In this document: one piece after another, positions 49,886 through 50,857 of the stretch
Numbering within the stretch: position 1 is the first letter of the stretch
How the letters are laid out: each line of letters opens with the position of its first letter
DNA from: Alphaproteobacteria bacterium
GTDB taxonomy: Bacteria > Pseudomonadota > Alphaproteobacteria > JAUHZC01
Assembly (NCBI GenBank): GCA_030425805.1
Contig: JAUHZC010000002.1
Coordinates: 20,448 to 84,447 of the forward strand
Length of the DNA: 64,000 nt
Reading direction: 5' to 3'
Program-made: the position numbers and the translations under genes
The notes under the pieces: generated by a model
Told to the model about the DNA's origin: nothing
The model's database searches: none
What the model saw: only the letters and a program-made list of their open reading frames with translations

Positions 49886-50857
49886 ATGAAAACACTCCCA
49901 CTCTTTTTTCATCCGACAACACAAATTATTGTTGATGATGATGTGCCTTTTCTCCAAGCAGCGTGGGAGCTTTTGGGGGATTGCTTCCCTCTCCTCCTCT
50001 TTGATTATGAGCCTGAAGAAGCTATCCGCAAGGTTTGCAAATCCTATGCCGCTTCTCCCTTACAATACTTAGCAGAGGATAACACGAACCTCCTCTCCAA
50101 AGCTGTAGGCGCAAAATACATTAATTTTGATCGGATTTTTGCCTTGCTAAAAGATCCTCACCGGTTTGATGTGATTTCCGTTGTGGTAACCGATTACAAT
50201 ATGCCTCGTATGAACGGGCTGGAGATGCTCTCTCACTTTCCAGATTCTGGGCTGCAGCGTGTTGTGCTTACGGGGAATGCAGATGAGCAGCTTGCTGTAA
50301 AATCTTTTAACGACCGACGGATTGAAAAATTCATCACCAAATCCCCCACAGCCGGAGAAGAAATCGCAAAAACCCTCCTAGAGGGAGAGGTCATGTTCTT
50401 TAAGAATGCCTACCAATCTCTCGTTCCTTTCTTTGATCAAAATGCTATCCGGAACGATACTTACATCGCCCTTTGCCGAAAGCTTATGGAAGAGAACAGC
50501 TACATTGAACATTATACTGTTTCTCCTCTTGGGAGCCGTCTCTTTGTGGACAAAGATGGAAATTGCACCTTCCTTGGCATCCATAACACCCAAGAACTTG
50601 ATCAAATCTACGAGTGGGTCAAAGACAATTATCCTACGTTTTCAAAAATGAAAGACTTGGAAGAAAAAAATCTTGGTCTCTGTCTTTGGGGCGTCAAAGA
50701 GGCCATTTCAGAGAAAGCTCTAGAAGACCATGTTCACCCCATCTATCGACTTGATGATGGGGATCTTTATGTGATCCAGGTTGATCAGCCCATTCCAAAG
50801 GAAGATATTTCCCCCCTTCAGCAATACCTCGATCAGCAAGAATCACGCATGCCCTAA
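49886..50857 (+). CDS. Orphan response-regulator receiver (REC) domain protein with uncharacterised C-terminal domain
   Basis: REC signature residues in order: IIVDDD, VVTDYNMPRMNG (phospho-acceptor Asp), VLTGN (Thr) and EKFITKSP (Lys). The roughly 170-aa C-terminal part has no recognisable output domain. Starts 27 nt after the upstream repeat-protein gene. Confidence 0.5.
   Translation: MKTLPLFFHPTTQIIVDDDVPFLQAAWELLGDCFPLLLFDYEPEEAIRKVCKSYAASPLQYLAEDNTNLLSKAVGAKYINFDRIFALLKDPHRFDVISVVVTDYNMPRMNGLEMLSHFPDSGLQRVVLTGNADEQLAVKSFNDRRIEKFITKSPTAGEEIAKTLLEGEVMFFKNAYQSLVPFFDQNAIRNDTYIALCRKLMEENSYIEHYTVSPLGSRLFVDKDGNCTFLGIHNTQELDQIYEWVKDNYPTFSKMKDLEEKNLGLCLWGVKEAISEKALEDHVHPIYRLDDGDLYVIQVDQPIPKEDISPLQQYLDQQESRMP

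Follow-up and report, generated by a model that had tools for sequence, protein, structure and literature searches.

We analysed a 64-kb stretch of the alphaproteobacterial contig JAUHZC010000002.1 (the window) and propose that the gene at positions 49886-50857 on its forward strand, an ATG-initiated open reading frame (ORF) of 323 amino acids plus stop, encodes a divergent response regulator of the LqsR/PhcX family. In this explanation, to which we assign a probability of roughly 0.88, a receiver (REC) domain carrying an insertion is joined through a long alpha5 linker to an LqsR-type output domain, with the mechanism carried over by homology. Membership of the family is itself very probable. 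An initial annotation of the window had described the protein as an orphan receiver with an unknown output domain; this last claim was not borne out, as the C-terminal region is homologous to LqsR of Legionella pneumophila (PDB 6SY9) in both sequence and fold. LqsR has been described as prototypic of a new family of response regulators, with a receiver that includes D108 and a C-terminal part lacking homology to known output domains (PMC3376566), and a recent study assigned PhcX of Ralstonia solanacearum to the LqsR-family regulators (PMC10653808).

The output domain and its relation to LqsR

Pfam and NCBIfam scans of the regulator found only the REC domain and have no model covering residues 175-323, which explains why no recognisable domain was seen there at first reading. 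Two weak C-terminal matches, to SUKH_6 (E 0.12) and Forkhead (E 0.21), were rejected as noise, and a word-indexed homologue search with the single sequence returned only the query protein itself. A phmmer search of PDB chains matched 6sy9_A ("Response regulator") with E 3.4e-26 over query residues 4-268, far beyond the receiver. The full-length AlphaFold2 (AF2) model, built on a 67-sequence family alignment, was of high confidence (predicted local distance difference test, pLDDT, 91.4; predicted template modelling score, pTM, 0.89), and its Foldseek match to 6SY9 extended over 321 columns (E 1.2e-21, template modelling score (TM) 0.73/0.76, 26% identity), while all other full-length Foldseek matches were confined to the REC domain. 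Family profiles used for scoring were built without the query: the full protein scored 189 bits, end to end, and with a profile limited to family C-termini the score of residues 176-323 was 58 bits, which corresponds to E 3.9e-14 when a database size of one million is assumed.

The LqsR-type output domain occupies residues 176-323 (148 aa; 50411-50854, forward strand), adopts an alpha/beta fold and retains the conserved residues E208, Y210 and G216. A separate model of residues 160-323 (pLDDT 86.5) again had 6sy9 as its sole significant PDB match (E 3.4e-7, TMq 0.62); the next matches were protein-kinase N-lobes, which were not significant (E >= 0.23). The initial annotation had itself stated that its claim would be overturned if the C-terminal region matched an output domain already known, and the search, once run, returned 6SY9. 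Its description of the region as non-DNA-binding and not obviously enzymatic stands, whereas the statement that no domain is recognisable gives way to an LqsR-type assignment by sequence and fold. In the literature, the LqsR output domain is treated as a putative nucleotide-binding fold without a DNA-binding motif, for which catalysis has not been demonstrated. Recognising it here removes a false lead, since a crystal structure is available for the LqsR-type domain and its family has been described. An annotation as "response regulator" or "CheY-like" can accordingly give way to the more precise "LqsR/PhcX-family response regulator".

Alternatively, the protein could be a degenerate REC-GGDEF regulator, its output domain a diverged diguanylate- or nucleotidyl-cyclase palm that binds GTP or cyclic di-GMP and feeds cyclic-dinucleotide signalling. 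The LqsR output domain has been described as a five-stranded antiparallel sheet that resembles the cyclase domain of PleD and bears a degenerate GG[DE][DE]F pattern (PMC10653808), and WspR (3i5a/3bre), DgcR (6zxb) and PleD (9g85) were among our full-length Foldseek matches at E of about 1e-5. However, those matches had root-mean-square deviations of 14-24 Å and TM of about 0.3, as expected from the shared REC domain alone. The isolated output-domain model retrieved no GGDEF or cyclase structure (all non-LqsR matches had E >= 0.23), so that the reported GGDEF-like fold was not reproduced by Foldseek on this domain. In the query, the conserved hairpin reads PLGSRLF, with no acidic residues at the positions equivalent to GG[DE][DE]F, and Pfam gave no GGDEF match at E <= 1; for LqsR itself, cyclase activity was not detected in vitro (PMC10653808). 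We therefore consider a cyclase-derived output unlikely and prefer assignment to the LqsR-type domain as such.

Receiver architecture and the divergence of the query

The receiver domain, delimited by Pfam Response_reg and the AF2 model, comprises residues 1-155 (49886-50350, forward strand). The N-terminus of the protein, MKTLPLFFHPTTQIIVDDD, can be aligned from residue 1 with the N-termini of relatives, and the start codon thus appears well placed. The complete REC signature that the initial annotation had read from the sequence is present there and in the AF2 model: D17-D18-D19 come directly after beta1 (residues 12-16), D103 lies within VVTDYNMP at the end of beta3 (97-103; codon 50192-50194), T129 ends beta4 (124-129), F149 takes the aromatic switch position and K152 follows beta5 (148-151). 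D17, D103, T129 and K152 fall in columns that are invariant, query included, in the 67-sequence family alignment (A2), and both D17 and D18 stand in its acidic-pocket columns. In the sequence alignment with PDB 6sy9, D103 pairs with the Asp of VVVDYAMP, which we take to be D108 of LqsR. The phospho-acceptor pocket of the query is intact.

The Pfam Response_reg model (PF00072) passed only narrowly (32.9 bits against a gathering threshold of 30.2) and matched only residues 94-154, at profile positions 40-101. This narrow and partial match is explained by an insertion of about 40 residues (56-96; 50051-50173, forward strand) between alpha2 and beta3, seen in both the AF2 model and the family alignment. 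The insertion is helical (helices 58-63, 69-74, 81-89 and 91-95), is modelled with lower confidence (pLDDT 68-77), and ends with R93-F94; R93 is invariant in family alignment A1, and R93 and F94 are invariant or nearly so across the alignments. It is common to all aligned family members and hence typical of the family. In the AF2 model, a long alpha5 helix (residues 156-175; 50351-50410, forward strand) joins the receiver to the output domain, and its F172 is kept in 95% of family members. E208, Y210, G216 and F172, kept even in an outlier such as this protein, are candidates for the functional core of the LqsR-type domain.

Homology to LqsR suggests how the regulator may work. In Legionella, LqsR takes its phosphate directly from the kinases LqsS and LqsT, and its phosphorylation-dependent dimerisation has been reported. 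By extension, D103 would be phosphorylated by an unlinked histidine kinase, and the protein would dimerise upon phosphorylation via T129/F149 coupling and the alpha4-beta5-alpha5 face; the output domain may then act on downstream targets, possibly by binding nucleotides or proteins.

The family to which we assign the query is large. An exhaustive HMMER search of 1.84 billion representatives recovered 1,907 relatives with E <= 1e-3, of which 1,024 reached E <= 1e-10. Most of the 150 relatives listed have lengths of 300-350 aa, and in many cases the alignment takes in the greater part of the query. Named close matches belong to Legionellales and Gammaproteobacteria, and PhcX orthologues are reported from 310 genomes of proteobacteria, of which 16 are alphaproteobacterial (PMC10653808). 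Several observations nevertheless weigh against the explanation that we favor. Among the 150 matches listed, no relative other than the query itself exceeded 33% identity, nor did any come to light in the roughly 15 billion proteins covered by the searches; a near-invariant Trp of the output domain is replaced by L279 and a conserved Lys at position 124 by Q124; given this divergence, the function of the query may have drifted from that of the family. Phosphorylation, dimerisation and output are, moreover, all properties that we infer for the query by transfer from LqsR. Furthermore, an lqsS/lqsA pair could sit outside the 64-kb window. A scan of GTDB representative contigs with the single protein likewise found no close relative, most matches being to the receiver region only.

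Divergence of this degree could also mark a receiver that is decaying, or that has become a phosphorylation-independent pseudo-receiver, after loss of the lqs genes in a reduced, host-associated genome. The window contains neither lqsA nor lqsS, and the protein is very divergent, including the loss of the Trp (L279) and the change of K124 to Q. Set against this, the reading frame is intact and of full length, all catalytic receiver residues are kept, the AF2 fold is predicted with high confidence, and base composition (GC 0.44; GC at third codon positions, GC3, 0.45) is like that of neighboring housekeeping genes. We judge decay to be very unlikely and continue to read the protein as a divergent LqsR/PhcX-family regulator. 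Recent horizontal transfer was likewise considered on compositional grounds and rejected: because GC and GC3 of the regulator match those of the neighboring housekeeping genes, composition gives no sign of recent acquisition.

Possible phosphodonors and genomic context

That the regulator is an orphan, as first annotated, is confirmed at the scale of the window, in which no histidine kinase was found. Three kinases linked to family members elsewhere had no phmmer match in the six-frame translation of the window, which also contained no H-box motif, and Pfam scans of its ORFs detected no HisKA, kinase-type HATPase_c or LqsA-like aminotransferase domain. The arrangement of the Lqs cluster (lqsA-lqsR-hdeD-lqsS) does not recur within these 64 kb, where the regulator has neither synthase nor kinase neighbors; such neighbors are missing at some other family loci as well. 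Since no kinase or LqsA-like synthase is present, the regulator is an orphan at this scale, detached from any lqs cluster, and we propose that it may have separated from an lqsA/lqsS-type synthase and sensor kinase much as PhcX has in Ralstonia.

Only one histidine-phosphotransfer protein was found in the window; its gene lies 12 kb upstream of the regulator, at 37109-37741 on the forward strand. As the initial annotation had noted, it resembles ChpT: the ORF matches Brucella and Caulobacter ChpT structures (PDB 4qpj, E 7e-6; 4fmt/4fpp, E 0.003) around an HDLIxPLGA histidine motif, although it is too divergent to give a Pfam match at E <= 0.01. With no histidine kinase in the window, one might imagine that this protein donates the phosphate and that ChpT, within a CckA-ChpT phosphorelay, has the regulator as a third substrate in addition to CtrA and CpdR. 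ChpT is, however, a housekeeping cell-cycle relay in Alphaproteobacteria. Nothing was found that links the ChpT-like ORF to the regulator, whether by proximity, operon co-orientation or precedent; Legionella LqsR receives its phosphate directly from its kinases, and a HATPase_c kinase gene is adjacent at some other family loci. The relay is thus a highly improbable donor, and any relevance of the ChpT-like protein to the regulator is purely conjectural. We retain an unlinked histidine kinase as the likelier partner of the LqsR-type regulator.

Other family loci show how variable the surroundings of these genes are. Of six such loci, two carry a HATPase_c gene next to the family member, another two a kinase at a distance of 3-4 kb, and the last two no kinase within 6 kb. 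On two unrelated metagenome contigs (L049, 5270-6927, and L050, 88-2711), an LqsR-family gene comes right after one or two HTH_3/Peptidase_S24 (LexA/CI-like) repressor genes, possibly another setting in which genes of the LqsR family recur.

Directly upstream of the regulator, at 47756-49858 on the same strand, lies a gene for a Q/A-rich repeat protein of 700 aa whose N-terminus (MNKFALSILATVFTFSADA) resembles a signal peptide and whose C-terminal tail is acidic. The gene contains near-perfect tandem DNA repeats (153 nt x 2.5, 90% matches; 105 nt x 4, 94% matches), after which come degenerate repeats, each about 30 aa long, with the pattern A-x-K-x-x-D-x-x-x-A-x-x-L-A-G-D-D. Pfam and NCBIfam gave its product no significant family match, and an identical sequence does not occur in the protein collection. 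The initial annotation was correct that the regulator starts 27 nt after this gene (TAA at 49856-49858), on the same strand and with no terminator between them. The gap (49859-49885, forward strand) holds a weak purine-rich ribosome-binding stretch (GGAAAA / GAGAG); a consensus scan found no terminator-like site in it, and the RNA structure predicted for 49820-49910 does not exceed shuffled sequences in stability (z = -0.32). A terminator-like hairpin with a T-rich tail, identified by consensus match only, lies 17 nt past the regulator stop (50874-50890, forward strand) and could end the transcription unit. Spacing thus makes co-transcription of the two genes plausible, and the regulator would perhaps be transcribed together with the secreted protein.

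It is from this arrangement that the initial annotation derived its own explanation: a novel output domain, acting in a dedicated regulatory module with the secreted Q/A-rich protein. The same-strand position, the 27-nt gap without a terminator and the lack of a Pfam or NCBIfam model for residues 175-323 would all suit such a module. However, the novelty of the domain is already refuted by its homology to the LqsR output domain, and none of the six other family loci has a Q/A-rich neighbor. Because of this, the pairing looks lineage-specific and may be incidental. We give a module built around a novel domain very little credence, and any functional coupling of the regulator to the Q/A-rich protein would be speculation.

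A related scenario keeps the LqsR-type assignment and takes the lineage-specific pairing at face value. A divergent LqsR-type regulator might have been rewired and co-expressed with the Q/A-rich protein in a host-associated alphaproteobacterium, its autoinducer synthase and cognate sensor having been lost or never present, so that phospho-signalling would either control a surface or effector protein or respond to it. Within this scenario, an unlinked kinase would perhaps sense host cues or foreign cues of the alpha-hydroxyketone type. We regard it as improbable, but if true, so minimal a system could expose the output activity of the LqsR domain.

The regulator is followed by a convergent gene of the YqgE/AlgH family (50843-51472, reverse strand; Pfam DUF179, E 1.7e-47, with an NCBIfam YqgE/AlgH match), which we place outside the module. 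The 3' ends of the two genes overlap by 15 nt (50843-50857), and the hairpin at 50874-50890 falls inside the AlgH coding region. Further along, the reverse-strand gene at 51600-53456 has a GC3 of 0.31 and encodes 618 aa (599 aa according to the Logan gene call) without a family match. Its product, which begins like a signal peptide and has a Lys run (RGKRKKKKKKA) resembling a eukaryotic nuclear-localisation signal as well as poly-Ser/Ala tracts, could be a host-targeted effector.

The window also contains an unusually dense set of ORFs with signal-peptide-like N-termini, on the forward strand at 3221-5452, 8174-8917, 12655-13584, 16511-17710 and 19620-20549 and on the reverse strand at 44874-46616, 59206-59922 and 59943-60779. 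Several have Ala/Glu/Arg-rich low-complexity regions, none has a significant Pfam match, and the ORF at 3221-5452 has a GC3 of about 0.31 compared with 0.42-0.44 in housekeeping genes; together they look like the effector or surface-protein repertoire of a host-associated bacterium. Two other reverse-strand genes have composite architectures: 60873-62465 encodes an MscS-type mechanosensitive channel with a C-terminal cyclic-nucleotide-binding domain (MS_channel_2nd, E 1.7e-16; cNMP_binding, E 2.7e-19), and 39229-40581 encodes a 450-aa protein in which a signal- or lipoprotein-like N-terminus and a long unmatched region precede a C-terminal HIT domain (E 1.6e-12), an unusual arrangement for a HIT hydrolase.

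The source organism is a deep-branching and probably host-associated alphaproteobacterium. Its GyrB shares 74% identity with that encoded on one metagenome contig and 64-66% with those of Rhodospirillales and Holosporales, including Paracaedimonas acanthamoebae. No regulator gene was found on the contig of the 74% relative.

Comparison with known systems

Single-domain receivers of the CheY-like and CpdR type in Alphaproteobacteria have canonical receiver chemistry, as does the query, and a ChpT-like protein is encoded in its window. Unlike these stand-alone receivers, the query carries a 148-aa output domain and a 40-aa receiver insertion. The REC-GGDEF proteins PleD, WspR and DgcR also have an N-terminal receiver and dimerise on phosphorylation, and a distant resemblance in fold is noted in the literature, but the query has neither a GGDEF motif nor a Pfam GGDEF match.

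LqsR of L. pneumophila (6SY9), which serves the Lqs alpha-hydroxyketone quorum-sensing system as response regulator, has the same full-length architecture as the query. Both have the REC insertion before beta3, the long alpha5 and the LqsR-type output domain, and the phospho-acceptor Asp stands in an equivalent motif (VVTDYNMP in the query, VVVDYAMP in LqsR). The two proteins are, however, only about 26% identical, and the query has Leu in place of the family's near-invariant Trp; its window has no lqsA, hdeD or lqsS neighbors, and it comes from an uncultured alphaproteobacterium, not from a gammaproteobacterium. The query is among the most divergent LqsR-type members, without a linked kinase or synthase in the window. 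The main remaining interest, which is modest, lies in the biochemical output of a domain as widespread as the LqsR type.

PhcX, a global virulence regulator of R. solanacearum, is a member of this family too and, like the query, stands apart from the Lqs autoinducer synthase and sensor kinase: in Ralstonia, phcX is separated from lqsA/lqsS and rewired into the virulence network (PMC10653808). The settings differ: PhcX adjoins the phcBSRQ quorum-sensing operon, whereas the query lies between the Q/A-rich gene and AlgH. PhcX shows that orphan LqsR-family members can be rewired into other networks, and the query, beside PhcX, adds to the evidence that this family has often been rewired away from alpha-hydroxyketone quorum sensing.
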